Shown in pieces: positions 34,476 through 49,512 of a DNA stretch of 64,000 bases. Source of the DNA: an uncultured delta proteobacterium (GTDB lineage: Bacteria; Myxococcota; Myxococcia; Myxococcales; Myxococcaceae); NCBI GenBank assembly GCA_963771175.1, contig CAVYSY010000052.1, positions 128,001 to 192,000 of the forward strand, given 5' to 3'. The stretch's first letter is position 1, and every line of letters begins with the position of its first letter. Below the pieces are notes generated by a model. It was not told where the DNA came from. It made no database searches and saw only the letters and a list, made by a program, of their open reading frames with translations. A program made the position numbers and the translations under genes.

Positions 34476-37400
34476 ATGCGCTGTCCGGTCTGCCACCGCC
34501 GCCTCTCCCCCGGTGCCGCCTGTCCCCAGCATGCGGCGCGGCCCCGGCCCACCCCGGAACCCGAGCCCCTCCCGCTGCCCCAGGTGCCCGGGCTCCAGCT
34601 CCGCGCGTGGATTGGCTCCGGTGGCTTCTCCCGGGTGTTCTCCGCCCGGCGCGAGGAGGACGGGCGCGAGGTGGCCCTGAAGGTGGCGCTCGGCCCCTTC
34701 GCCGCGCGCTTCTCCCGCGAGGCCTCGGCGCTGCGCCGCGTGGGCCCTCCCACCGTGCCCGAGCTCTTCCACGAGGGCTCCGCCGACGGACGCCCCTACC
34801 TCGTCCTCGAGCGCCTGCGGGGCCAGACGCTCGCCGCCTGGATGGACGCGCTCCCCGGCTCGGGCGCCGCGCCCCTCTCGCACGTGAGGGACCTGCTCGC
34901 CGGACTGTGTGGCGCCCTGGAGCGCGTGCATGGCGCCGGGCTCGTCCACCGCGACCTCAAGCCGGAGAACGTCTTCCTGCGCGAGGGGGGCGCGCTCAGC
35001 CTCCTGGACTTCGGCCTCGCGCGCTTCCTCGACGGCTCCGGCTCCGAGGAGCCCGAGGAGTCCGTCAGCCTCACCCGCACCGGCCAGCGGCTCGGCACCG
35101 TCCTCTATATGGCGCCCGAGCAGTGCCTGGAGGCCCGCGACGTGGATGCGCGGGCGGACCTCTACGCGCTCGGCGTCCTCCTCTTCGAGCTGCTCACCGG
35201 CGCCCCTCCCTTCACCGGCGGGCCGGACGAGGTGCTGCACGGCCACGTCAGCCTCCGGCCGCCTCGCGTCTCCGAGCGCGCCCCCGTCCCGCCGGCCCTC
35301 GACGACGTCCTCCTGCGCTGCCTCGCCAAGGAGCGCACGGAGCGCTTCGGCACCGCCGCCGAGCTGCCTCGCCGCCTTCGACGCCGCCTGCCGCACCGCC
35401 CCTCCGCGCCCACCGCGGCGGAGGACGTGCTCGCGCCCGCGAGGCCCCAGGGCGTGCGCCCGGTGGCCCTCCTCGGCGTGCGCAGCGAGGCGCCCGTGGA
35501 CCAGCTCGTCGCGACGCTGGCTCCCGAGGGCGGGCTGCTCGCGCGCGTCCACGCGGGCCGCTACCTCGTCGCCTTCCCCGAGCACCCCTCGGCCGAGGCG
35601 GGGCTCCGCGCCGCCACCCGCGCCGCCCGGCACCTCCTCGACGCGCCCGGCACCACCGCCGTCCTCCACCTCGCGGAGCTGCACGTGCGCCCCGGCGCCA
35701 CCTTCACGCGCCTCGCGGGCACGGCCCTGGAGCAGCCGGAGTCCTGGTGGCCCGACGCGGGCCAGGGTGGAGCCGCCTCCCTCGTGGCCACTCCCGAGGC
35801 CGCCGCCCGGCTCGGGGAAGGCGCGACGACGCCGGGCCCGGAGAGCACCCTGCTGCTCACCGGAGACTCCTCCATCACCCGGGCCCCGGGAGCCACCGAG
35901 CCCCCGCCCCTCCTGGGCCGCGACGCGCTGCTCGACACGCTCCTGGCGGATGCGGCCCGCTCCTTCATCGGCCCCGGCCCCGGCTTCTCCGTCCTCACGG
36001 GCGAGGCGGGCCACGGGAAGACGCGCCTGCTCGACGCGCTCGCCACACGCCTGGAGGCGGAGGGCCGGGCCCGCGTGGTGCGCCTCGCCGCGCCCCACCC
36101 CGACGCGTCCGCGGCGGATGCCCTGCTCCATGCGCTGTGGGCGCTCGGCCATCCGGACGAGCCCACTCCTCCCGCACTGCCCTCCCGGGCCCGGCGCCAT
36201 ACCCTCGCCCGCGCCGTGGCCGAGGCCCTGCGCCACCTCGCCACCCAGCGGCCCCTGGCCCTCCTGCTGGACGACGCGCACCAGGCGGACCCCACCTCGC
36301 TGGACGCGCTGGAGATGGCCACGCTCACCGCGCTGGACGTGCCCCTGTGGGTGTGCGCCGCCGGACGCCCCGAGCTGCTCGGCCCGCGGCCACTCCTCGG
36401 CGAGCGGGCCGGCTACCTCGCACGCCACGTGCTGCCACCACTCGCGCCCGAGGCCAGCCGCGCGCTGCTGCTGCACCTGCTTCGCCCCGCCGAGTTCATC
36501 CCCGAGCCGGTGCTGGCCCGCCTGGAGCAACTGGCGCAGGGCGTGCCGCTGTCGCTGGTGGAGGTGGCCGAGGCGCTGCGGGTCTCGGGAGCCCTGCGCG
36601 AGGCCCCCGGGGGCGAGTGGTACGTGGCGGCGGACGAGCTGCTGCACGTCTCGGTGACGCCCCTCTTCGAGCGACTCGCCACGCGGGCCCTCTCCTTATT
36701 ACCCGCGGCGCACCAGGGCCTCGCGCAGCTGTGCGCGGTGCTGGGCCAGGAGCTGACGGTGGCGCAGGTGGACGCGGCGCAGCGGCACCTGGACGCGCGG
36801 GAGGACACGGCGCGAGTGGCCGGCCTGGACGCGGGAGCGGGGCTCACGAGGCTGGAGCGCGCGGGGCTGCTGCGGACGGTGGCCCCGGGCCGCTTCGCCT
36901 TCCGCCAGCCCCAACTGCGCGAGGCCCTCGAGCGCGCCCTGCCCGCCCCGTGGCGACGCGCGCTGCACGCGGCGGCCCTGCGGGGCCTGTCGGGACAGGG
37001 GGCCTCGGAGCAGCGCCGGCGCGCCCGCCATGCCGCGGCCTGCGGCGCGCACGAGGAGTCCTTCGCCGCGTGGTTCTCCCTGGGCGAGGCCGCGCGCCAG
37101 GCCCACCGCTACGTGGAGGCCGAGCAGGACTACACCCACGCCCTGGCGCAGCTCCCCGAGGGGGACACGGCGCGGCGCGCGCGGGTGCTGGCGGGACGGG
37201 GCCGGGTGCGCTACCGCACGCACCGCTTCCGCGAGGCGCTGGCGGACCTGAGCGCGGCGCGCGCGCTGGCTGGGGCGCAGGGGGACACCTCGCTGGAGGT
37301 GGACATGCTGCTGGAGGAGGCCACCGTCCTGGACTGGCTGGAGGACCCCCAGACGACGACGGCGCGCACGGCCGAGGCCCTGGAGAAGGCCGAGCACCTC

Positions 37401-38312
37401 GACGACCCACGCCTGTCCGTGCGCTGCTCGCTGGCCCGCGCGAGACAGGCCTGGAGGGAGGGAGACTGGCCACGCGCCACGCGGCTGCTGACCGCCACGG
37501 AGGAGTCCGCCCTGCTCGCGCGGGACGCGGAGACGCGCTGCATCGCGCTGATGATGATGGCCACGGGGCTGGCGCTGCAGGAGCAGGAGGAAGCGGCGGC
37601 CCGGGCCTTCGACGAGGCGCTGGCGCTGTGCCGCAAGGAGGGGGACACGCTGCACGAGGCCGCGACGCTCATCAACCGGCCCTTCCTCTGGATGCTGAGG
37701 GGGAACGTGGAGGCGGCGCTGGAGGACCTGCGGCGCGCCTCGGCGCTGGCGCGCGAGCTGGGCCACCCGCAGATCGAGCGCTGGGCCACGGGCAACCTCG
37801 CCGAGTTCCTCCATTGGGCGGGACGCACCGAGGAGGCGTACCGGCTGGCCCGGCGCGCGCGCGAGCTGGGCGAGCGCTTCTTCGCCGAGCACCCGGTGGC
37901 GGTGGACGCGGTGCTGCTGGCGCGGGTGAGCGCGGCGCGAGGAGAGCTGGAGGAGGCCCGGAAGCTGCTGGCCTGGCTCTCCGCCCGCTGCCGGCGCGAG
38001 CTCACCCCGCCCAACACCCTGGCGCTATGGAGGCTGGTGGAGCTGCGGGTGCGCGAGGCGGACACGGGCACCCGGGACGCCGAGGCCTGGAAGACGCTCG
38101 CCGCCGAGGCCCAGCCGAACACCTCGGGGGACGAGCTGACGGAGGTGCTGTACGAGGCCACCCTCTCCGCCCTCCGGGCCGGGAACCCGGACGAGGCCCG
38201 GGAGTGGCTCACCCGGGCCCAGGGCACGGCGGCGGCCTCCCCCCTGTGGCGCTCACGCCTGGAGGCATTCCGCGTTGCCTCGAAAACAACACCCACGGCG
38301 GGAGACCTGTAG
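34476..38312 (+). CDS. Ser/Thr kinase fused to a STAND-type AAA ATPase and TPR repeats
   Basis: N-terminal CPVC..CPQH; GSGGFSRV, VALK, HRDLKPEN, DFG, APE; Walker A GEAGHGKT, Walker B LLLDDAH, GVPL; TPR-like C-terminus. Confidence 0.92.
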   Translation: MRCPVCHRRLSPGAACPQHAARPRPTPEPEPLPLPQVPGLQLRAWIGSGGFSRVFSARREEDGREVALKVALGPFAARFSREASALRRVGPPTVPELFHEGSADGRPYLVLERLRGQTLAAWMDALPGSGAAPLSHVRDLLAGLCGALERVHGAGLVHRDLKPENVFLREGGALSLLDFGLARFLDGSGSEEPEESVSLTRTGQRLGTVLYMAPEQCLEARDVDARADLYALGVLLFELLTGAPPFTGGPDEVLHGHVSLRPPRVSERAPVPPALDDVLLRCLAKERTERFGTAAELPRRLRRRLPHRPSAPTAAEDVLAPARPQGVRPVALLGVRSEAPVDQLVATLAPEGGLLARVHAGRYLVAFPEHPSAEAGLRAATRAARHLLDAPGTTAVLHLAELHVRPGATFTRLAGTALEQPESWWPDAGQGGAASLVATPEAAARLGEGATTPGPESTLLLTGDSSITRAPGATEPPPLLGRDALLDTLLADAARSFIGPGPGFSVLTGEAGHGKTRLLDALATRLEAEGRARVVRLAAPHPDASAADALLHALWALGHPDEPTPPALPSRARRHTLARAVAEALRHLATQRPLALLLDDAHQADPTSLDALEMATLTALDVPLWVCAAGRPELLGPRPLLGERAGYLARHVLPPLAPEASRALLLHLLRPAEFIPEPVLARLEQLAQGVPLSLVEVAEALRVSGALREAPGGEWYVAADELLHVSVTPLFERLATRALSLLPAAHQGLAQLCAVLGQELTVAQVDAAQRHLDAREDTARVAGLDAGAGLTRLERAGLLRTVAPGRFAFRQPQLREALERALPAPWRRALHAAALRGLSGQGASEQRRRARHAAACGAHEESFAAWFSLGEAARQAHRYVEAEQDYTHALAQLPEGDTARRARVLAGRGRVRYRTHRFREALADLSAARALAGAQGDTSLEVDMLLEEATVLDWLEDPQTTTARTAEALEKAEHLDDPRLSVRCSLARARQAWREGDWPRATRLLTATEESALLARDAETRCIALMMMATGLALQEQEEAAARAFDEALALCRKEGDTLHEAATLINRPFLWMLRGNVEAALEDLRRASALARELGHPQIERWATGNLAEFLHWAGRTEEAYRLARRARELGERFFAEHPVAVDAVLLARVSAARGELEEARKLLAWLSARCRRELTPPNTLALWRLVELRVREADTGTRDAEAWKTLAAEAQPNTSGDELTEVLYEATLSALRAGNPDEAREWLTRAQGTAAASPLWRSRLEAFRVASKTTPTAGDL

Positions 38313-39915: not shown

Positions 39916-41325
39916 ATGACGAACCGGAAGGAGGACGCCCCCTGGTCGCTGTACGGTGAGGAGCTGTCGCCAGGGGCGCAGGTGGGCGGCTACCTCATCG
40001 AGAGCACGCGCTACCGGGGAAGCGTCTCGACGCTCTACCGCGCGAGGGAGACGCGCACGGGGGCTCCGGTGGCGCTGAAGGTGATGAGGCCCCAGTTCGC
40101 CACCGCGCGAGGGGCCCTGCGCCGCTTCCAGCAGGAGGCGGAGACGCTCCAGCGGTTGCGGCACCCGCACATCGTGGACGTGCTGGAGCACGGGGCGCTG
40201 CCGGATGGCCGGCCCTTCATCGCCATGGAGTGGCTGGAGGGGAGGGACCTGGCGGCGGAGCTGGCGGCGCGAGGCTCCTTCTCCGCGCCCGAGGCGCTGG
40301 AGTTGCTGGAGCAGGTGGGCTCGGCGCTGCGGGCGGCGCACGGTGCGGGGGTGGTGCACCGGGACTTGAAGGCGCAGAACGTGATGGTGCTGCCGGGGGG
40401 GACGGGGCCCCTGGTGAAGCTGGTGGACTTCGGGGTGGCGAAGCTGCTGGCGCCGGAGGAGCCGGGCACGGCGTTGACGAGCACGGGGCTGGTGCTGGGC
40501 ACGCCGCTGTCCATGGCGCCGGAGCAGATTCGAGGGGAGACGCCGGACGCGAGGACGGACCTCTACGGACTGGGGGTGCTGCTGTACCAGCTCGTCACGG
40601 GGCAGCCGCCCTTCCAGGGAACGACGCAGGTGGAGCTGGAGGAGCAACACCTGCACGCGCCGGCGCCGAGGGCGAGCGAGCGGGCCCCGGTGCCGGCGGC
40701 GCTGGACGCGGTGGTGGGGCGCTGCCTGGAGAAGCGGCGGGAGGACCGCTACCCGAGCGTGGACGCGGCACTGGAGGACCTGCGGCGCGCGGTGAGGGGA
40801 GAGCGACAGGGCCGAGCGAGCCAGGTGCGGGCACTGGGGTTGTACGTGGAGGCGAGGATGGAGGGGGTGGAGGGGCGGGTGGACGAGGCCACGCTGGACG
40901 CGGTGGACGCGCTGCTGGAGCGCGCGCGCGCACGGGTGGACGCGCTGGGGCTGCGGGTGATGGTGGAAGGGAGCAACTTCCTGCTGGGAGTCACGGCACT
41001 GCCGGACGAGGCGGATGCCGAGCGAGAAGCGCGCAAGCGGATGCTGGAGCTGGCACTCGCGCTGGCGGAGGAGCGAGAGGGAGCGCGGGTGTCACTGGTG
41101 CCCACGCTGCATGTGGACACGGCGACGCTGCGCCCGGACGCGAGCGGCAGACCGGGCCTGGGGGGAGGCCGGCTGCTGCGGTTGTCTGCCTGGACGGGGG
41201 GACACCCGGGCCGGGGCGTGGTGGTGACGGAGGCGGCGCTCACGGGGCTGGAGGACACCTTCGCCTCGGAAGAGCTCCCCGGCCCCGGGAGCCTGCGCCA
41301 CGTCTCGCGGGGGACGCCGTCGTAG
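39916..41325 (+). CDS. Ser/Thr protein kinase with C-terminal extension
   Basis: VALK, HRDLKAQN, DFG, GTPLSMAPE, DLYGLG; atypical Gly loop YRGSVSTLY. Confidence 0.92.
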   Translation: MTNRKEDAPWSLYGEELSPGAQVGGYLIESTRYRGSVSTLYRARETRTGAPVALKVMRPQFATARGALRRFQQEAETLQRLRHPHIVDVLEHGALPDGRPFIAMEWLEGRDLAAELAARGSFSAPEALELLEQVGSALRAAHGAGVVHRDLKAQNVMVLPGGTGPLVKLVDFGVAKLLAPEEPGTALTSTGLVLGTPLSMAPEQIRGETPDARTDLYGLGVLLYQLVTGQPPFQGTTQVELEEQHLHAPAPRASERAPVPAALDAVVGRCLEKRREDRYPSVDAALEDLRRAVRGERQGRASQVRALGLYVEARMEGVEGRVDEATLDAVDALLERARARVDALGLRVMVEGSNFLLGVTALPDEADAEREARKRMLELALALAEEREGARVSLVPTLHVDTATLRPDASGRPGLGGGRLLRLSAWTGGHPGRGVVVTEAALTGLEDTFASEELPGPGSLRHVSRGTPS

Positions 41326-41898: not shown

Positions 41899-42741
41899 TT
41901 ACCGCACGGTGAGCGTGTACGAACCGCCGTTGCGACGGATCTCCGCGTTCAGGTCGTCGCGGAACTGACGCTGCGTCGCCGCATCCCCGACGATGCCGAT
42001 GCAGCCCGCGGTGCCGCGCGCGCCACCGTCCGGGTGGATGCGCAGCGCCGTGCGGTCGCGGCCCGCGCGCGCGTCGTACATCGCGTCAGAGTTGGGGCGG
42101 CGCGCGTCCTCCATGCGGAAGCTGTAGCCGACGCCGTCGCGCACGAAAGCCGCCTCGGAGCGGTTGTTGCGGTGCGCCGTCACCCGGTAGGTGCCCTGCG
42201 GCGTCGAGTAGAGGTTGGTCGAGCCGGAGTTGAAATTGTACGAGCGGCCGTTCACCGTGATGGAGCCGGTGGTCAGGCCACGGCCGTCGAGTGGGTTGTT
42301 CAGACGCGCGGTGCCGTTGGCGGCGTTGGGCGTCGTGCCAGTCGAGCCCCTGGCGCCATCGAGCGCGCCCATCGTGCGGCGGCCGGCGATGCCGTCCACC
42401 TGCAGGCCCTGCGAGCGCTGGAAATCACGCACCGCGCGCTCGGTGCGCGGGCCGAACTTGCCGTCACTGGCACCCGGGTCGAAGCCCGAGGAGCGCAGCT
42501 TGTCCTGGAGCGAGCGCACCGACTCACTGCGCATCCCGGAGCGCAGCGAGCCCGTCGCCGAGCCCGGCTGGGTGCGGCTGGCGGGCGTGAAGCTGCTGCG
42601 GGTGGAGTAGCCAGTGGCCGTGCGGGTGCTGGTGCCGGTGCGCGAGGTCGTGCCCGTGCGCGACGTGCCACCCGTGCGCGACGTGCTGCTTGAAGACCGA
42701 GAAGACGTGCCCGAGGACCGCGAAGAACCAGAAACGCTCAT
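41899..42741 (-). CDS. Peptidoglycan-binding protein with C-terminal L,D-transpeptidase-like (Tlde1/DUF2778-like) domain
   Basis: PG_binding_1 pattern VRSLQDKL..DGKFGPRTERAVRDFQ..GLQVDGIAG; catalytic-type LRIHPDG...GTAGCI. Confidence 0.78.
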   Translation of the reverse strand: MSVSGSSRSSGTSSRSSSSTSRTGGTSRTGTTSRTGTSTRTATGYSTRSSFTPASRTQPGSATGSLRSGMRSESVRSLQDKLRSSGFDPGASDGKFGPRTERAVRDFQRSQGLQVDGIAGRRTMGALDGARGSTGTTPNAANGTARLNNPLDGRGLTTGSITVNGRSYNFNSGSTNLYSTPQGTYRVTAHRNNRSEAAFVRDGVGYSFRMEDARRPNSDAMYDARAGRDRTALRIHPDGGARGTAGCIGIVGDAATQRQFRDDLNAEIRRNGGSYTLTVR

Positions 42742-42794
42742 GATGAACTCCCTATCAGTGGCGCTCCGCGACCGGCGTTGGGCGGAACAATTCC

Positions 42795-42823
42795 ATTATC
42801 GGAATGTGGGCGGAGGTGTTTCC
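42795..42823 (-). promoter_or_regulatory. Candidate sigma28 (FliA/WhiG)-like promoter
   Basis: Minus strand GGAAAC-N15-CCGATAAT, about 55 nt upstream of the ATG; CCGATAA matches the sigma28 -10 core. Confidence 0.45.
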
Positions 42824-43068
42824 TCTCTTTTGTTCTTTTCCTGGGCTGGCCCGGCCGTCCTCTCCCGACGGGACCCTGAGCAGCGCGTCATGGCCGCCTC
42901 GGCGCGTGGCGAAGACCAGGTCGTCCACTTCACCGGGGCTAGCCCACCGCGAACGTTACCCAGGCGAAACAGGCTCGTACCCGCGAACCCTATCACTCTT
43001 CTACCCAGTCCTTATTGTGCCCTTCCCCATCACCCGCTCGCGCGGGCTGCACACGGAGGGTTTCCGAC

Positions 43069-43473
43069 ATGGCCTCACGTTTCCGCCCGTTTCTCGCTGG
43101 TCTCGGTGGCACCGTCCTGCTCGCGCTCTGCGGGTGTGGCGGTGGAGATGACGATGACAATGGAGAGCCGACGGGCAACACCTGCCCTCCCGGCGGCACC
43201 ACGCTCACCGCGCAGAACTTCGCCCAGCCGTTCTTCCAGAGCTACTGCACGCGCTGCCACAGTTCGACGCTCAGTGGCCCCCAGCGCAACGGGGCTCCGC
43301 CCGATGCCAACTTCGACACGCTGGAGGGCATTCGCGCCGAACTGGAGGAGATCAACGAGCTGGCCGGCGCTGACAGTGCGGGGGTGAACACCGTGATGCC
43401 GCCCAGTGACCCCAAGCCCACGGACGACGAACGGCGCCAGCTCAATGAATGGATCATCTGCGGCGCCCCGTGA
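43069..43473 (+). CDS. Monoheme c-type cytochrome lipoprotein
   Basis: GGAGG RBS; lipobox LCGC; CTRCH; distal MPP; C-terminal EWIICGAP. Confidence 0.8.
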   Translation: MASRFRPFLAGLGGTVLLALCGCGGGDDDDNGEPTGNTCPPGGTTLTAQNFAQPFFQSYCTRCHSSTLSGPQRNGAPPDANFDTLEGIRAELEEINELAGADSAGVNTVMPPSDPKPTDDERRQLNEWIICGAP

Positions 43474-43491
43474 CCAGGAGGGGAACGCGAG

Positions 43492-44028
43492 ATGAGACTC
43501 GGACACGTGTGCGCGCTGTGGCTGCTCGTCGCCCTACCGGCGATGGCGCAGGTGGAGCGCGTGGGGAACGCGACCGCCGGGTTCAACGGCAAGGGCCCCG
43601 GGGGCTTCAAGCTCGAGGGCACGACCCACGAGCTCTCCATCAAGGACGACGGGCAGAAGGTGACCTACGTCGTGCCGCTGGCCACGCTGAAGACGGGCAT
43701 CGAGCTGAGGGATCGCCACATGCGCGAGAAGTACCTCCAGACCGACAAGTACCCCGACGCCGTGCTGGTGGTGCCCTGGAGCGCCATCCGCCTCCCGGAG
43801 CAGGGGCAGTCCGTGACCCAGACCGTCACCGGGCAGATGAGCCTGCACGGCAAGACGAAGGACGTGCCCGTGACGTACACCGTGCGCAGGAATGGCGACG
43901 TCTACGAGACGACCGGGAAAGTACCGCTCAACATCAAGGACTTCGGCATCGACATCCCGAGCTACCTCGGGGTGACCGTCAAGCCGGACATCGAGACCTC
44001 GGTCGCCTTCAACTTCAAGCGGAAATAG
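43492..44028 (+). CDS. yceI: YceI-family polyisoprenoid-binding periplasmic protein
   Basis: Signal peptide ending AMA; LKTGIELRDRHM..KYLQTDKYP, GQMSLHGKTKDV, KDFGI. Confidence 0.88.
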   Translation: MRLGHVCALWLLVALPAMAQVERVGNATAGFNGKGPGGFKLEGTTHELSIKDDGQKVTYVVPLATLKTGIELRDRHMREKYLQTDKYPDAVLVVPWSAIRLPEQGQSVTQTVTGQMSLHGKTKDVPVTYTVRRNGDVYETTGKVPLNIKDFGIDIPSYLGVTVKPDIETSVAFNFKRK

Positions 44029-44045
44029 GAGGAGCGCGAGAGCCT

Positions 44046-45218
44046 ATGCGCCAGGGGCTGGTCGTACTGATGGTGGTGGGTTGCCTCGCCGCTGCTCGCG
44101 CCGAGGCCTTTCCGTGGATGATCCGTCACGGCTACACGAACTGCGCCTCGTGCCATCACGACCCCTCCGGAGGAGCCCTCGTGACGCCGTACGGACGGGC
44201 CCAGTCCGAGCTGCTCCTCGCGGCCCGATACGGGCAGCGGAAGGAAGCGGAGGAGGCAAGCCCCACCACGGCCTTCTTGTTCGGGGCGGTCACCCTGCCG
44301 GACTGGCTCAACCTGGGCTTGTCCTTCCGCGGCGCGGGGCTCCTCACACGGACCGGTGGCAATACGGACGTGCGAGCCCTCCAGATGGTGAGCGATCTCC
44401 GGGCGAACGTGTCCGTGGGGCCACTCCGGGCCGGCGGCTCGATAGGGTTCGTGGCGCGCCAGGCGAGGTTCGCCGCGTTGACGAACTTCGAGGAGAACAA
44501 CATCGTCTCCCGCGAGCATTGGCTCGGGGTGACCAACGAGGACCAGACCCTGCTGCTGAGGGCCGGACGGATGACGCTGCCCTTCGGTCTTCGCAACGTC
44601 GAGCACACGCTGTGGGCGCGGGTGAGCACGCGCACCGACCACAACGAGCAGCAGCAGCACGGGGTGGCGCTGGCCTACAACACCGAAGGACTCCGGGCCG
44701 AGGTGATGGGCATCCTCGGCAACTTCCAGCTCCACCCGAGTCTCTACTGGGAACACGGTTACTCCGGCTATGTCGAATGGGCGCCGTTCACGAGGGCCGC
44801 CTTCGGGGTGAGCAGCCTCCTGACCCATGCCGAGTACGACGTGGTGACGATACGGCCTTCCTTCCTCCGCCAGGCGCACGGCGTCTTCGCGCGGGTGGCA
44901 CCCGTCACTCCGGTGGTGTTCCTGCTGGAGGCGGATGTGCTGCTCGACAGGCCCGAGGGGGGCCCGACCACGAGCGGCTACACCGGACTGCTCCAGGTGG
45001 ACTACGAGCTGAGGCAGGGCTTCCACCTCCTGGCCACCGCCGAGCTCCTCCAGCGGCCCGGGGTCCACGTCACCGAGGTCGGAGGCTGGCTCTCGTTCGA
45101 CTACTTCATCCTTCCGCAGTTGGAGGTCCGGCTCGACGCCATCCTGAGGCACACCGGCCAGAGCGCCGCCGAGCCCAATGTGATGAACCTTCTGGGGCAG
45201 CTGCGCCTCTCCATCTGA
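44046..45218 (+). CDS. Monoheme cytochrome c fused to an outer-membrane beta-barrel (Cyc2-like architecture)
   Basis: GGAGG RBS; signal ending AEA; FPWMIRHGYTNCASCH...VTPYGR, then amphipathic beta-strands to the C-terminus. Confidence 0.72.
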   Translation: MRQGLVVLMVVGCLAAARAEAFPWMIRHGYTNCASCHHDPSGGALVTPYGRAQSELLLAARYGQRKEAEEASPTTAFLFGAVTLPDWLNLGLSFRGAGLLTRTGGNTDVRALQMVSDLRANVSVGPLRAGGSIGFVARQARFAALTNFEENNIVSREHWLGVTNEDQTLLLRAGRMTLPFGLRNVEHTLWARVSTRTDHNEQQQHGVALAYNTEGLRAEVMGILGNFQLHPSLYWEHGYSGYVEWAPFTRAAFGVSSLLTHAEYDVVTIRPSFLRQAHGVFARVAPVTPVVFLLEADVLLDRPEGGPTTSGYTGLLQVDYELRQGFHLLATAELLQRPGVHVTEVGGWLSFDYFILPQLEVRLDAILRHTGQSAAEPNVMNLLGQLRLSI

Positions 45219-45242
45219 CCCGCCGTGCTCCCCGTGAACGCC

Positions 45243-45725
45243 ATGCACCCGCCTCCCCGCCTCGCCCGCCCAGCACTCGTCGCGCTGGCACTCCTCGCCG
45301 CGCCCTCCGCGCTCGCGACCCCCAACTTCCCGGGCGCCGTCCAGAGCGAGCTCAACCTCTCCCGCGCGCCCGAATGCTCGCTGTGCCACATCGGGGTCCA
45401 GGCGCGAGGAACCGTGAACACGCCCTTCGGAACCTCCATGCGCCAGAGGGGGCTGCGCGCGAACGACGAGGAGAGCCTCCGGACCGCGCTGGACATGATG
45501 CGCGCCGAAGCCGTGGACAGTGATGGGGACGGGACGCCGGACGTGGAGGAGCTCATCGCTGGCGACGACCCGAACCAGGGCCCCGAGCCCCCGAGCGACA
45601 CGCCGCCGGAGCCTACCTTTGGATGTGCCAGCAGCCCGGAGGGAGCGACCTGGTGGGCGCTGCTCCTCCTCGCGCTCGCGGTGGCTCCCCGGGCCGGCCA
45701 TGCGCCGGGTCCCCCTCGCACCTGA
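45243..45725 (+). CDS. Monoheme CxxCH protein with Ca-binding TSP3-like repeat and MYXO-CTERM-like anchor
   Basis: Signal ending ALA; CSLCH...NTPFG; DSDGDGTPDVEE..GDDPN; FGCAS + hydrophobic segment + Arg. Confidence 0.72.
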   Translation: MHPPPRLARPALVALALLAAPSALATPNFPGAVQSELNLSRAPECSLCHIGVQARGTVNTPFGTSMRQRGLRANDEESLRTALDMMRAEAVDSDGDGTPDVEELIAGDDPNQGPEPPSDTPPEPTFGCASSPEGATWWALLLLALAVAPRAGHAPGPPRT

Positions 45726-45884
45726 ATCACACCGCGCTACGGCTTGTCCGCGACGAGCAGGGCCTCGACGTTGCCCGCGGGTCCGGGCACGGTGGAGTCC
45801 ATCACCCCAGTCCAGCTCTGGGCGATGAGGCCCAGAGAGGTCTCCGGGCCTGTCGTCAGGAGCCGAGCCAGGCTGGGCTTCCGG

Positions 45885-46673
45885 TCACGGGCACTGGAGA
45901 TCGAAGTTCTTCGTTTCCCCGTCGGGGTCGGTCACCTTGACACTCGAGGTGCCATTGAACTCCGTGGTGAAGACGCCGTCCTCGCCCTCCACCGTCACCT
46001 TGCCCGCGGTGGGGCACTGGTCCACGCAGCGCTGGTAGCCGGTGATGGTCGAGGTGGTGACCTTATCGCCGCGCGTGCTACCACCCTGGCCATTCAGGGT
46101 CACACACCCGCTCCCCTGCTCCCAGGTCATGGTGAGCTGCGTGTCCCGGGAGTCGACCACGTTCGGAGCGCGGCTGCGCGACCTCATCGTCACCGTCCGC
46201 TGGGTGCCCGCACGCGTGGCGGTCCCGTTCAGGTCGAGGATGAAGGGGTTTCCGCCCGCGGTCAGGTCCGTAGAGGAGGCGGTGAAGACCAGCTGGCCGT
46301 TGCTCTCCGAGAGTTCGAGCTTCACGGCCCCGGAGACCGACCTCAATCCGAAGGCGCCTTCGCAGTTGTTGAAGGTGTAATTCACCGTGGTGCCCGAGGC
46401 CGTCGCCACCGCACACCCGGCAGGGGTGAAGTAGGTGCCGGCCCGGCTGGCAATCGCAGACGCGGCCGCTTCCAGATCTATTTGCTGCGCGACCGGGGCG
46501 GAGAAGTAGTAGACGCCGTAGGGATCGACCCAGCCGTAGGCGTAATACGCATCGTAGCCGGACCAGTATGGGTCGTAATAGGCGTAGTCGTAATAGTAGG
46601 GATCGTAGTAGGTGCTGGCGCACCCGGTCATCGCCATCACCAAGAGATAGAGCATCGCCTTGAATCGTTTCAC
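45885..46673 (-). CDS. Lipoprotein with Tyr-rich N-terminal segment
   Basis: AAAGGAG before GTG; lipobox MTGC; Tyr-rich tract; beta-rich Thr/Gly body with paired Cys. Confidence 0.8.
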   Translation of the reverse strand: MKRFKAMLYLLVMAMTGCASTYYDPYYYDYAYYDPYWSGYDAYYAYGWVDPYGVYYFSAPVAQQIDLEAAASAIASRAGTYFTPAGCAVATASGTTVNYTFNNCEGAFGLRSVSGAVKLELSESNGQLVFTASSTDLTAGGNPFILDLNGTATRAGTQRTVTMRSRSRAPNVVDSRDTQLTMTWEQGSGCVTLNGQGGSTRGDKVTTSTITGYQRCVDQCPTAGKVTVEGEDGVFTTEFNGTSSVKVTDPDGETKNFDLQCP

Positions 46674-46768: not shown

Positions 46769-47492
46769 GTGCGGAGGGAAACGGATTTCCCATCCGAGAG
46801 AGAAGTATTCCAGGGGTTGAGGCGAGGTTGCCACTTTGGGGAAGGCGAGAATTTCGAGCCTGTGGAGGAGCGCATCATCGTCCCCCCTCAGAGGCTCATC
46901 CCAGCACCGGCGCCCACCGGCTCCTATGCGGCCTACGAAAAGGTGGTTCAGCCCGAGTTGGGGATGGTGTACGGCACCGGCTGGCTGCCCCCCCATGCTC
47001 GACCTGCGGGACTACACCCCGTCGACCAAGGAGGTGGCGGAGATGTCGGCCAGGCTCGGCATCTCGCCGAGCGACCTCACCGCACAGTTGCCCTCGGCCG
47101 TCGACGTGAGGCAGTACTGCTCGCCCATCGACAACCAGGGCCCACTCGGTGCGTGCACGGCTCACGCCGCGGTGGGGATCGTCGAGTACTTCCAGAACCG
47201 CGCCTTCAACAGCTACGTCGATGGCTCGAGACTGTTCGTCGACAAGACAACGCGCAACCTCATGGGAGTGGTGGGCGACACGGGTGCCTGGCTCCGGTAC
47301 ACCATGGCGGCGCTCACCTACTGCGGCGTCCCTCCAGAGAAGTACTGGCCCTAACCACCGCCACCCAGGAAAGGGTACGGCTGGCTGCCCTACGACTACG
47401 TGCTCAAATCCCTGGCACTCGATTTCTGGTCCATCCTGAGCATGAGCTGGGTGAATACGAATCGTTTCGGAATCGAGGCGACGCAGCACTGA
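46769..47492 (+). pseudogene. Papain-like C1 cysteine peptidase relic (frameshift plus internal deletion)
   Basis: GTGWLP / DLRDY, LPSAVD..CSPIDNQG..GACTAHA, SRLF, G.PPEKYWP stop, then directly the C-terminal GYGWLPYDYVL..LALDFWS; start uncertain. Confidence 0.8.
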
Positions 47493-47525
47493 AAGTCCTT
47501 CGAGCAATTGGGGGCCGGCGCCTCC

Positions 47526-48519
47526 TCACCTGGGAGGCGCCATGAGCCGCTCGCCCAGCAACTGGACGTAGCGCGCCCGGCTGATGTTGCGGCCGGTGAT
47601 GACCACGGCGATGTCTCGGAAGCCCTCCGGTGGGTGGCGCAGCAATGCGGCCACCGTCGCGGCTCCGGAGGGCTCGACGACGAGCTGGTGCTCCTCGAGC
47701 AACCAGGCCATCGCATCCTGGATGTCCGCCTCCGACACGAGCAGCACCCGGTCCACGTACTTCTGGGCCAGGGGCAGAGTGAGGGTGTCCGGCTCCGGCT
47801 GCGCCCCCAGCCCGTCCGCGATGCTGGGCCGGGCCGCCACCGGGACGGGCCGTCCGTGCCGCATCCACTCCGCGAGCACCGGGCTCACCTCGGGCTGCAC
47901 GCCCCAGAGCTTCATGCCGGGGGTTGCGGTCCTTCATCGCCACGCCCATCCCGCTGATGAGGCCGCCACCGCCGATGGCCACCACCGCGAGGTCCACCTC
48001 CGGCAGGTCATCGAGCACCTCCAGCCCCACCGTGCCGCCCCCGGCGATGATGTCCGGGTCGTTGTAGGCGGAGACGAAGAGGCGCTGGTGCTCGCGCGCG
48101 TGCGCCTGGGCCGCCTCGCGCGCTGCGGGCACCGAATCGAGGAAGTGGAGCCGGGCCCCATTGCGGCGCATGACCTCCACCTTGCGCGGGTCCGCCGTGC
48201 GCGGAAGGAACAGCTCCACGGGGACGCCGAGCCGCCGCGCGACGTGGGACAGGCCGATGCCGTGGCCGCCGGCGGTGGAGGCCACCACCCCGCGCGCACG
48301 CGTGGCGTCGTCCACGGCCAGCAGCTTGTTGAAGGAGATGCGCGGCTTGAAGCTGCCCGTCACCTGGAGGCACTCCAGCTTGAGGAAGACGTGGGCGCCG
48401 AGCCGCTCGGAGAGCGCGGCGGACGGCTCCAGCGGCGTGTGCCGGATGAACGGGGCGATGCGCTCGCGCGCCTGGCGGATGGACTGGGGCGTGACGAGGG
48501 TGTGCGGCGCGGAGGACAT
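47526..48519 (-). CDS. PLP-dependent threonine/serine dehydratase-family enzyme, one frameshift near 47920
   Basis: TPLE, FLKLECLQVTGSFKPR, ASTAGGHG, IGGGGLISG, SIADGL, VVEPSGAA, ITGRN. Confidence 0.88.
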
Positions 48520-48615
48520 GGGGACTCCTGTGTGCGGAGGCCTCACGGATGTGCCACCCCGAGCCTCCGCGCGGAACGGGCATGAGCGCGGGGGCAGGCA
48601 TGCGAGAATGCAGGG

Positions 48616-49512
48616 GTGGACTGGAATGACCTGCGCTACCTGCTCGCAGTGTACGAGGGCGGCTCGCTCGCGGCCGCGGCGCGCAAGCTGCGCGTGGACG
48701 CGGCGACGGTGGGCCGGCGGCTCGCGGCGCTGGAGCGCTCCGTGGGTGTCCGCCTGCTGGAGAAGGCCCCCGGAGGGATGCGCCTGACCGTCTCCGGCGA
48801 GCAGGCGGTGCAAGCCGCGCGGCACATCGACGAGACCGCCACCACGCTGGAGCGACAGCTCGCCGGGGCGGATGTCCAGGTGTCCGGGAGCGTCCGCGTC
48901 ACCGCACCCGAGACAGTGGTGAGCCACGTGCTCGCGCCACACCTGCCCGCCTGGCGAGAACGCTACCCCGCGCTACGACTGGAATTGCTGGCGGCCACCC
49001 AGGTGCTCAACCTGTCCCGCCGTGAGGCGGACGTGGCGGTGCGGCTGTTCCGACCACAGGAACCCACGCTCGTGGTGCGCAAGCTGGGCGAGCTCTCCTT
49101 CGCGCTGTACGGCTCCAGGGCCTACGTGCGCCAGCATGGGCGTCCCCGGCTGGAGGCACTGCGCGAGCACGTGCTGCTGGGCTACGACGACTCCCTGGCA
49201 CAGACGCCAGAGAAGCAGTGGCTGGAGCGCGCGGGGGACGGGGCCCTCTTCGTCCTGCGCAGCAACAGCCGTTATGCGCTGCTGGAAGCCGCGCGCAAGG
49301 GATTGGGACTCACGGTGCTGCCCTGCTACCTCGCGGACGGCGTGTCGGGGCTCGTGAGGCTCTCCCGCCTGGACGACCTTCCCAGGCGCGAGGCCTGGCT
49401 GGCCGTTCACCCAGACCTCCAACATGCCCCGCGCGTGCGGGCGACCATCGACCTGCTGGTGGAGGTCTTCCAACGGGAAGGCGCTCGGCTGCGGGGCGAG
49501 CGGCCGAGGTGA
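48616..49512 (+). CDS. LysR-family transcriptional regulator
   Basis: MDWNDLRYLLAV..GSLAAAARKL..ATVGRRL HTH; NLSRREADVAVR; divergent from the dehydratase. Confidence 0.92.
   Translation: MDWNDLRYLLAVYEGGSLAAAARKLRVDAATVGRRLAALERSVGVRLLEKAPGGMRLTVSGEQAVQAARHIDETATTLERQLAGADVQVSGSVRVTAPETVVSHVLAPHLPAWRERYPALRLELLAATQVLNLSRREADVAVRLFRPQEPTLVVRKLGELSFALYGSRAYVRQHGRPRLEALREHVLLGYDDSLAQTPEKQWLERAGDGALFVLRSNSRYALLEAARKGLGLTVLPCYLADGVSGLVRLSRLDDLPRREAWLAVHPDLQHAPRVRATIDLLVEVFQREGARLRGERPR

Follow-up and report, generated by a model that had tools for sequence, protein, structure and literature searches.

A monohaem cytochrome-porin with a Cyc2-like haem domain and its partner genes: a candidate outer-membrane redox module of Myxococcota

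Introduction

The closest described counterparts of the system analysed here are the Cyc2 proteins, defined by Keffer et al. (PMC8406198) by a signal peptide, one CXXCH haem-binding site and a 16-strand porin, with a length of at least 365 amino acids (aa), together with the motifs AXPXFAR[Q/K][T/Y] before and PXL after the haem site. Cyc2 carries a low-spin haem and oxidizes Fe(II) (PMC8406198; PMC13692758). Two further systems couple lipid carriers to haem proteins: proteins of the YceI family hold ubiquinone-8 or polyisoprenoids, and one of them, BcnA, defends against lipid peroxidation with cytochrome b561 LcoA (PMC9113575); Cbp2D is a secreted protein that joins a YceI-like X158 domain to c-type cytochrome domains (PMC8981238). 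Here we describe a four-gene locus (g1 to g4) in a 64,000-nucleotide (nt) stretch of contig CAVYSY010000052.1 of an uncultured member of the Myxococcaceae (GCA_963771175.1), hereafter the window. The locus encodes a fused cytochrome-porin (g3), a second exported protein with a haem motif (g4), a lipoprotein with a cytochrome c motif (g1) and a YceI-family protein (g2).

For neutrophilic iron oxidation, Cyc2 is the marker gene in use, and surveys depend on its motif and on profile hidden Markov models (HMMs). An earlier note, made from the letters of the window, had proposed that the four genes form an electron conduit across the outer membrane, with g3 likened to Cyc2 and g4 assigned to the MYXO-CTERM surface proteins. 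Its description of the locus stands. The four open reading frames (ORFs), all on the + strand, span 43069-45725 with intergenic gaps of 18, 17 and 24 nt, and all products carry export signals, which end in AMA, AEA and ALA in g2, g3 and g4 and are of the lipoprotein type in g1. Exactly one CxxCH is present in each of g1 (CTRCH), g3 (CASCH) and g4 (CSLCH); the motif is conserved in 26/26 aligned homologues of g3, in 70/71 g4-like ORFs (found by blastp, window copy included) and in the orthologue of g1. The assignment of g2 to YceI is likewise borne out (PF04264, 67.1 bits, gathering cut-off 23.7), as is that of g1 to lipoproteins with CTRCH and a downstream Met (lipobox LCGC, with the Met of the MPP motif kept in the orthologue).

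Results

Gene 3 encodes a fused cytochrome-porin

The g3 protein matches no Pfam or NCBIfam family (best Pfam row Porin_O_P, E 0.14), and a PDB sequence search returned nothing beyond one chance row (E=2). In a word-index search with 8000 candidates scored, 519 homologues were found at E<=0.001, the best of which, from Archangium lansingense, is 86% identical; the source names shown are "hypothetical protein", with the exception of one UniRef "Cytochrome c domain-containing protein". Across 26 aligned homologues with 44-86% identity, C33, C36 and H37 of the CxxCH motif are invariant, and so are M25, H28, D39, P40, G42, T47, Y49 and G50 around it. The motif lies 11 residues into the mature chain, and the Ala at position -1 of the signal cleavage site is kept even in distant relatives. 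Seven fetched loci with weaker matches encode proteins that read AYPQFIAKGYTNCASCH or similar; in these, the Cys/Cys/His of CxxCH and several Arg are retained, as are the Gly of YG and, in the LPFG segment, the Pro and Gly. M25 or H28 was considered as the distal haem ligand, a reading dropped as a general claim because distant relatives have neither residue conserved.

The AlphaFold2 model of g3, built from the homologue alignment (pLDDT, the predicted score in the local distance difference test, 79.1; predicted template modelling score, pTM, 0.79), has 16 strands over residues 88-389, with a pLDDT of about 85 in the strands. Foldseek yielded 315 PDB matches at E<=0.001, with 16-strand porins leading (Vibrio OmpT, 4e-13, then PorB, Omp32, OmpF and OprP), in line with the beta-barrel that the earlier note had read from the sequence. 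Mean column conservation is 0.80 in the haem domain, 0.74 in the loop of 27 residues that joins strands 5 and 6, and 0.56-0.59 in the remaining barrel. This loop, the most conserved part of the barrel, contains conserved acidic residues and His, and every distant relative aligned has retained its P179 and G181. Judging by the strand map rather than by coordinates, it appears to occupy the position of porin loop L3, which forms the constriction of general porins.

The haem domain of g3 resembles that of Cyc2

The properties that g3 shares with Cyc2 are a signal peptide followed by a single N-terminal CXXCH and a fused 16-strand porin, in a protein of 390 aa. In place of PXFAR[Q/K][T/Y], g3 and its family have P-W-M-I-R-H-G, which agrees at P and R only; the Cyc2 N-terminal pattern given in the earlier note is matched at no more than these two positions. 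PXL, four residues past CXXCH in Cyc2, is also missing: g3 reads CASCH-HD-PSG, and the family consensus is DPSGGG.

A set of canonical Cyc2 proteins for comparison was obtained by back-translating the motif to DNA and scanning a metagenome collection with it, which gave at least 120 stretches. From these, 80 loci were fetched; a motif-bearing ORF was found in 74 and was full length in 53, and 30 of the 53 were aligned. The spacing from the Pro to the first Cys is the same in the g3 family (A-Y-P-W-M-I-R-H-G-Y-T-x-C) and in the 53 motif-defined Cyc2 proteins (A-x-P-x-F-A-R-Q-T-x-x-x-C), and the T-x-Y-G-R of g3 echoes T-P-F-G-R of Cyc2. When the haem domains of the two families were aligned on their own with hhalign, the probability was 94.7% over 28 columns with a score of 33.6, a value reached by 0/60 shuffles in which the CxxCH columns were kept fixed (24.3 +/- 2.5).

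An HMM built from the 30 motif-defined proteins gave g3 8.5 bits, at the N-terminus only, and had no match at E<=0.01 in this genome, which is 81.7% complete. The same HMM matched 71/301 sampled Myxococcota genomes, showing that the search works, and in other genomes it also touches the N-termini of some g3-family members. Both families occur together in at least nine genomes (G070, G080, G095, G159, G167, G190, G206, G238 and G271). In the flanks (up to 1.6 kb) of the 80 canonical metagenomic Cyc2 genes, YceI, lipocalin and g4 were all not found; the one weak g4 match lies in the haem domain of a Cyc2 protein. Class-I-type cytochromes flank six canonical Cyc2 genes from Myxococcota, and one of these genes adjoins a dihaem family also found beside g3 homologues.

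We conclude that g3 is not a Cyc2 by the published definition. It belongs to a separate family of the same build, whose haem module is probably shared with Cyc2. The likeness to Cyc2 put forward in the earlier note thus survives for the architecture, the conserved haem motif and the barrel, but not for PXFAR[Q/K][T/Y], PXL or the Cyc2 profile; its caution that the motif does not establish iron oxidation was correct.

Gene 4 encodes an exported protein with a haem motif and a sorting-type tail

In addition to CxxCH, 53 of the 71 g4-like ORFs contain D.D.DG. In an alignment of 29 ORFs, picked for lengths of 158-183 aa, which suggest correct starts, C45, C48, H49, N111, G127 and C128 are invariant in 29/29. 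The Ca-loop repeat VDSDGDGTPDVEEL scores 11 bits with TSP3_bac, under the cut-off, and the RefSeq name of the A. lansingense orthologue is "thrombospondin type 3 repeat-containing protein". The C-terminal tail consists of FGC, a hydrophobic stretch and then scattered Arg; most homologues end in RRR(R), so the Arg cluster is weaker in the window copy. Against JDVT-CTERM, the tail scores 16.1 bits (cut-off 27). For MYXO-CTERM proteins, lipidation has been proposed and cleavage by myxosortase shown, with the type II secretion system carrying the proteins to the surface (PMC11980579).

The AlphaFold2 model of g4 has a pLDDT of 84.1, with values of 90-97 across most of residues 30-115. Foldseek gave no match to it at E<=0.001, and the best Z of a wide VIA-align search was 3.1; the predicted fold is therefore one for which no solved relative was found, and we do not claim it as a new fold. 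The haem region of g4 resembles the Cyc2 haem domain (93.8%, score reached by 0/60 shuffles) and, more weakly, that of g3 (88%, reached by 3/60).

The first haem and Ca-loop region of the NCBIfam family NF041762 ("GEGP motif-containing diheme protein") is matched by 17/29 g4 homologues (best E 2.9e-7). Like g4, NF041762 proteins have this region and, in the three loci read, adjoin a porin-like barrel, of about 410 aa; unlike g4, they are dihaem lipoproteins of about 400 aa, the neighbouring barrel has no haem motif, and g4 reaches 13 bits with the model (cut-off 300). The three loci are L210 (G052), L211 (G023) and L214 (G102). NF041762 occurs mainly in another Myxococcota family (8/18 genomes there), in which g3 homologues were found in 0/18. 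The pair of NF041762 and barrel may represent the g3/g4 theme in a split or alternative form. We found no literature on the "GEGP motif".

Distribution of the g3 family

Among reference genomes, 382 stretches encode a g3 relative. By record title, the best 80 of the 382 are nearly all from Myxococcota, many of them metagenome-assembled genomes, of which a few are labelled otherwise, and include the genera Archangium, Cystobacter, Vitiosangium, Labilithrix, Minicystis, Nannocystis, Sorangium and Byssovorax. Cellulolytic Polyangia and one genome of the Anaeromyxobacteraceae also have members of the family. When Myxococcota genomes were sampled evenly, 108/401 had a g3 match (E<=1e-5), among them 79/171 from the family to which the window belongs, and a genome had as many as four copies; the genome of the window has one. 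These tallies take in one unpublished genome (G196). Searched against 1.84 billion representative proteins, the g3 profile matched 1770 at E<=0.001, 1167 at 1e-10 and 393 at 1e-30.

Several members depart from the common build. Long proteins of the family (P0165, P0175, P0184 and P0202; 510-584 aa) have an extremely acidic insert of 100-200 residues between the haem domain and the barrel, composed of DSFDSFD repeats and Glu/Asp runs with some Lys. A metagenome gene call of 475 aa (P0228) joins YceI to a g3 homologue that has its own signal peptide; it probably reflects read-through in the gene calling and not a genuine fusion. Of fused g3 forms above 684 aa, the search returned one, joined to a transposase.

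Conserved neighbours of g3

Partners of g3 were surveyed in the best 80 loci by tblastn with the window proteins and representatives of neighbours (E<=1e-4, at least 60 aligned residues). Downstream of g3, three of the 80 loci extend for less than 600 nt, and upstream of it two extend for less than 700 nt, so that a few of the absences reflect truncation. The g4 gene is present in 68/80 loci and lies directly downstream of g3 on the same strand in 67/80; the conserved core of the locus is g3 and g4. YceI was detected in 46/80 loci, within 300 nt upstream and on the same strand in 34, and a Blc-type lipocalin (PF08212, 120.8 bits) in 12/80, of which 10 are without YceI, so that 56/80 loci have one or the other.

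Additional genes for c-type cytochromes, up to three of them, recur in g3 loci; extra di- or trihaem cytochromes with a common domain are present in 17/80. The g1 protein scores below the cut-offs of Cytochrome_CBB3 (PF13442, 21.2 bits, cut-off 27) and Cytochrom_C (PF00034, 20.4 bits, cut-off 21.3). Its A. lansingense orthologue has the lipobox LGGC and keeps CTRCH and the downstream MPP Met. The g1 domain (CxxCH ... MPP ... W-I/L-x-x-G-A) appears in cytochromes that flank distant g3 relatives in 4/7 fetched loci, and phmmer of g1 against nine sequences gave four matches (1.3e-10, 3.8e-6, 8e-5 and 1.2e-4). Its likeness to the first domain of the trihaem proteins is weaker (0.0014 for one, none for the other).

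The g2 protein is one of about 10 YceI matches in the genome, among which it scores low, and a PDB sequence search with it returned nothing. Matches to PF01292, the domain of the b561 cytochromes that characterize the BcnA-LcoA arrangement, were found on contigs C33 and C56 of the assembly and none on the contig of the window.

Variants of the locus were also observed. A representative of the lipocalins (L079:3018-3713) ends in a Cys/helix/Arg tail, which suggests that it is surface-anchored; the same family is found in 11 further loci. In a subgroup of five loci (L037, L042, L065, L072 and L077), YceI lies upstream of the g3 homologue and g4 is missing; these have a common upstream protein of about 435 aa and, in all except L077, a downstream ORF without family assignment, neither with a haem motif. 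In six Polyangia loci (L010, L012, L013, L016, L021 and L038), g4 is extended to three CxxCH motifs, lacks the sorting tail and is followed by a separate trihaem cytochrome of about 300 aa.

Organization of the locus and its surroundings

The features of the locus are listed in Table 1. Shine-Dalgarno-like GGAGG sequences precede g1, g2 and g3; the same inspection found no GGAGG-type ribosome site upstream of g4. An alternative GTG start of g4 at 45225 would add six residues, and RefSeq takes the ATG in the A. lansingense orthologue. A scan of 42600-46000 for promoters and terminators gave 0 promoter-like sites and one terminator-like site, upstream of the operon, counts no higher than in shuffled sequences. 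Cytochrome c maturation genes are present in the genome.

Table 1. Features of the g1-g4 locus, in coordinates of the window
Feature	Position	Strand	Basis
g1, putative lipoprotein monohaem cytochrome c, 134 aa	43069..43473	+	ORF, lipobox, CTRCH, below-cut-off Pfam rows
g1 lipobox LCGC	43126-43137	+	
g1 CTRCH (aa 60-64)	43246-43260	+	
g1 MPP with candidate distal Met	43396-43404	+	
g2, exported YceI-family protein, divergent paralogue, 178 aa	43492..44028	+	PF04264 match
g3, fused putative monohaem cytochrome-porin, 390 aa	44046..45218	+	alignment, AlphaFold2, Foldseek
g3 signal peptide, aa 1-21, ends AEA	44046..44108	+	read from sequence
g3 N-terminal haem domain, aa 22-60	44109..44225	+	conservation, hhalign vs Cyc2
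g3 CASCH (aa 33-37)	44142-44156	+	
g3 strand 5-6 loop, predicted porin L3 position, aa 177-203, LPFGLRNVEHTLWARVSTRTDHNEQQ	44574..44654	+	AlphaFold2 strand map, conservation
g4, exported putative monohaem protein, 160 aa	45243..45725	+	ORF, homologue alignment, AlphaFold2
g4 CSLCH (aa 45-49)	45375-45389	+	
g4 TSP3-like VDSDGDGTPDVEEL	45513-45557	+	
g4 C-terminal sorting-type tail: FGC, hydrophobic helix, weak Arg tail	45618..45722	+	invariant G127/C128 in homologues

The flanking genes encode two Ser/Thr kinases, a peptidoglycan-binding protein, a lipoprotein, a pyridoxal-phosphate (PLP) enzyme and a LysR regulator. They are on the opposite strand or unrelated, and the four genes are therefore taken as one unit. 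With the exception of the kinases (9 loci), these flanks are not common to other g3 loci. The kinase genes lie 5' of the operon on the + strand, at 34476-38312 (also with AAA and TPR regions) and 39916-41325, and kinase genes are located within 4 kb of g3 homologues in 8 further loci. The gene of the PALP-type PLP-dependent enzyme (47404-48942, - strand) is apparently split over two reading frames, with the N-terminal two thirds in ORF 47404-48942 and the C-terminal part (PF00291, 84 bits) in ORF 47526-47915, the result of either a frameshift or an assembly error.

Discussion

A candidate route for electrons across the outer membrane

We consider it probable, on balance, that the locus is an outer-membrane redox module with a conserved g3 and g4 core, in which electrons cross the outer membrane. 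The g3 protein would be exported, receive one covalent haem on the mature N-terminal segment of 35-40 residues and fold into the 16-strand barrel, where the haem segment and the conserved loop at the L3 position probably form a defined site inside the pore. The g4 protein would also be exported and, by way of its Cys/helix/Arg tail, probably lipidated, cleaved and displayed on the surface, where its haem could face the mouth of g3 on the outside. In the periplasm, a lipoprotein cytochrome c of class-I type, g1 in the window and mono-, di- or trihaem cytochromes elsewhere, would exchange electrons with the barrel haem, so that electrons would cross the membrane via one haem per protein. YceI, or a lipocalin in some lineages, would carry a hydrophobic cofactor, most likely an isoprenoid quinone, and supply or receive quinone or lipid. 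A complex prediction for g3 (aa 21-390) and g4 (aa 25-126) with two haems gave a score of 0.07 (mark 0.32).

As for direction, we lean, by analogy with Cyc2, toward an inward flow, in which a small reductant outside the cell would feed the pool of periplasmic cytochrome c, because the partner cytochromes are of class-I, probably His/Met, kind and because an accessory dihaem protein is shared with a canonical Cyc2 locus. Class-I His/Met cytochromes usually feed oxidases.

Several observations weigh against such a conduit. The haems of g1, g3 and g4 are presumed from the CxxCH motifs. The haem segment of g3 is poorly modelled (pLDDT 39-52 over residues 11-40), and its place inside the barrel is therefore assumed by analogy with Cyc2 models; M25 and H28 are not kept in distant relatives. 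The Cyc2 likeness is limited to 28 columns: the hhalign probability for the two families, 95.7% with signal peptides, drops to 67% (E 5e-5) for whole mature proteins, and the barrels alone have no detectable similarity (0.2%). The alignment of 29 g4 homologues contains no further conserved His or Met that might serve as distal ligand. The MYXO-CTERM assignment in the earlier note agrees with the presence of a Cys/hydrophobic/Arg tail in g4, but the tail scores 14.6 bits with the MYXO-CTERM model (TIGR03901, cut-off 20), its Arg cluster is weak, and the model matches 2/29 g4 homologues at E<=0.01. The co-occurrence that the note had expected of all four genes applies to g3 with g4 and, less generally, to YceI; g4 is absent from 12/80 loci, 24/80 have neither YceI nor lipocalin, and g1 itself was found in 1/80, that of A. 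lansingense, although analogous cytochromes recur.

Weighing other explanations

One alternative is specifically an Fe(II) oxidase of the Cyc2 kind, in which dissolved Fe2+ would enter the barrel and reduce the g3 haem. The electron would pass to periplasmic cytochrome c and on to a terminal oxidase, serving either energy or iron detoxification. The common architecture and the related haem domain point that way, as do the class-I-type partner g1, the class-I cytochromes and the dihaem family beside canonical Cyc2 genes of Myxococcota, and the conserved acidic residues and His of the L3-position loop. We nevertheless regard this role as rather unlikely, given that the Cyc2-defining motifs described in PMC8406198 are missing from g3, that a profile recognizing Cyc2 in many Myxococcota gives g3 a marginal score and finds nothing in this genome, that the coexistence of the two families in at least nine genomes argues for different roles, and that g4, YceI and lipocalin were not found within 1.6 kb of 80 canonical Cyc2 genes. 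A protective function in the envelope has its centre in the lipid carrier: at the outer membrane, a quinol or other lipid antioxidant bound to YceI or lipocalin would quench lipid peroxyl radicals or superoxide. Cytochromes would re-reduce it or remove the electron, making the set an outer-membrane counterpart of BcnA-LcoA. The precedent is the protection against lipid peroxidation described for the YceI lipocalin BcnA with cytochrome b561 LcoA (PMC9113575); moreover, a lipid-binding barrel is encoded in most loci, YceI and Blc-type lipocalins, some of them surface-tailed, interchange, and g2 is a divergent, operon-specific paralogue among the YceI matches of the genome. The loci with neither carrier and the lack of a b561 gene on the contig of the window argue against it, and such a role would leave the Cyc2-like haem domain unexplained. 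Taken as a complete account, we give it a low probability; an antioxidant role around the lipid carrier is nearly as likely as inward electron flow.

The combination of a surface cytochrome, a porin and a periplasmic cytochrome would work, in the manner of MtrCAB or Pcc, for electron export, either to Fe(III), Mn(IV) or humic substances outside the cell or to oxidative enzymes that are secreted, in the style proposed for Cbp2D and lytic polysaccharide monooxygenases. Secreted proteins with YceI-like and c-type cytochrome domains have been described (PMC8981238), and the g3 family is found in cellulolytic Polyangia and one Anaeromyxobacteraceae genome; however, the core proteins have one haem motif each, whereas known outward conduits are multihaem chains with larger barrels, and the loci examined contain no linked inner-membrane quinol dehydrogenase, which makes export improbable. 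Least probable to us is the absence of any conduit, with g3 being a solute-specific porin with a haem plug or sensor, or the whole set handling haem, porphyrin or metal, and g4 a surface binding protein. The unusual conservation of the L3-position loop suggests a specific binding site, the g4 fold has neither a solved relative nor a conserved distal ligand, and the acidic inserts of the long variants could bind cations; yet the recurrence of up to three further c-type cytochrome genes, and a haem domain related to the one in an enzyme of proven redox function, argue against this view.

Implications

The public names of orthologues are limited to hypothetical, YceI family and TSP3-repeat proteins, and in our searches of the literature on Cyc2 in Myxococcota and on myxobacterial outer-membrane cytochromes or extracellular electron transfer we did not find the g3 family or the module described, in agreement with the novelty claimed for the system in the earlier note. 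We rate the idea of a cytochrome-porin as already known, and this family, its partners and its host range as new. It is a sister family with the build of Cyc2, missed by Cyc2 criteria and widespread in soil Myxococcota, and its partners are ones not seen beside canonical Cyc2.

If electrons do move through the favoured conduit, outer-membrane electron conduits would extend to aerobic predators, and this one, with three monohaem proteins, would be smaller than any other known; YceI and the lipocalins, families long left unexplained, would become linked to outer-membrane redox chemistry. A more specific proposal, which we put forward as speculative and doubtful, is that cytochrome-porins of a phylum-wide family, each with a lipid-anchored surface cytochrome of its own whose fold has no solved relative, form a minimal one-haem-per-protein wire whose haem module would have the same ancestry as that of Cyc2. 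Aerobic predatory myxobacteria would use this wire, along with YceI or a lipocalin carrying quinone, for redox chemistry at the cell surface, such as quenching lipid radicals or superoxide or oxidizing extracellular reductants, and not for metal respiration. If so, it would make up a new class among outer-membrane systems for redox defence or energy. Cultured strains of Archangium, Cystobacter, Labilithrix and Minicystis carry the module, and experiments are therefore feasible.

Comparison with known systems

Cyc2, as represented by the proteins of Acidithiobacillus ferrooxidans, Mariprofundus (Cyc2PV-1) and Ghiorsea (Cyc2TAG1_1), has in common with g3 the signal peptide, the early CxxCH, the 16-strand porin, a similar size (389-540 aa versus 390 aa), the Pro-Cys spacing and (T/N)x(F/Y)G after the haem site. 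Unlike Cyc2, g3 has PWMIRHG, lacks PXL and barrel similarity, and is missed by the Cyc2 profile; it also has a strongly conserved loop at the predicted L3 position, an adjacent, dedicated candidate surface cytochrome, and YceI or lipocalin. The two families coexist in some genomes.

The MtrCAB and Pcc systems follow the same logic: a barrel of the outer membrane is encoded together with a periplasmic cytochrome and a surface cytochrome that has a lipid anchor. They differ in that their deca- or multihaem proteins are threaded through barrels of 20-26 strands, whereas the haem-motif proteins here have a single CxxCH each, and the barrel, of 16 strands, carries the haem segment as a fusion; these systems and the locus showed no detected relation in sequence. 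With BcnA-LcoA and Cbp2D, the locus shares the genetic coupling of a YceI-family binder of quinones or polyisoprenoids to a haem protein outside the cytoplasm, the partner here being a predicted outer-membrane c-type cytochrome-porin in place of an inner-membrane b561 or a secreted multidomain protein.

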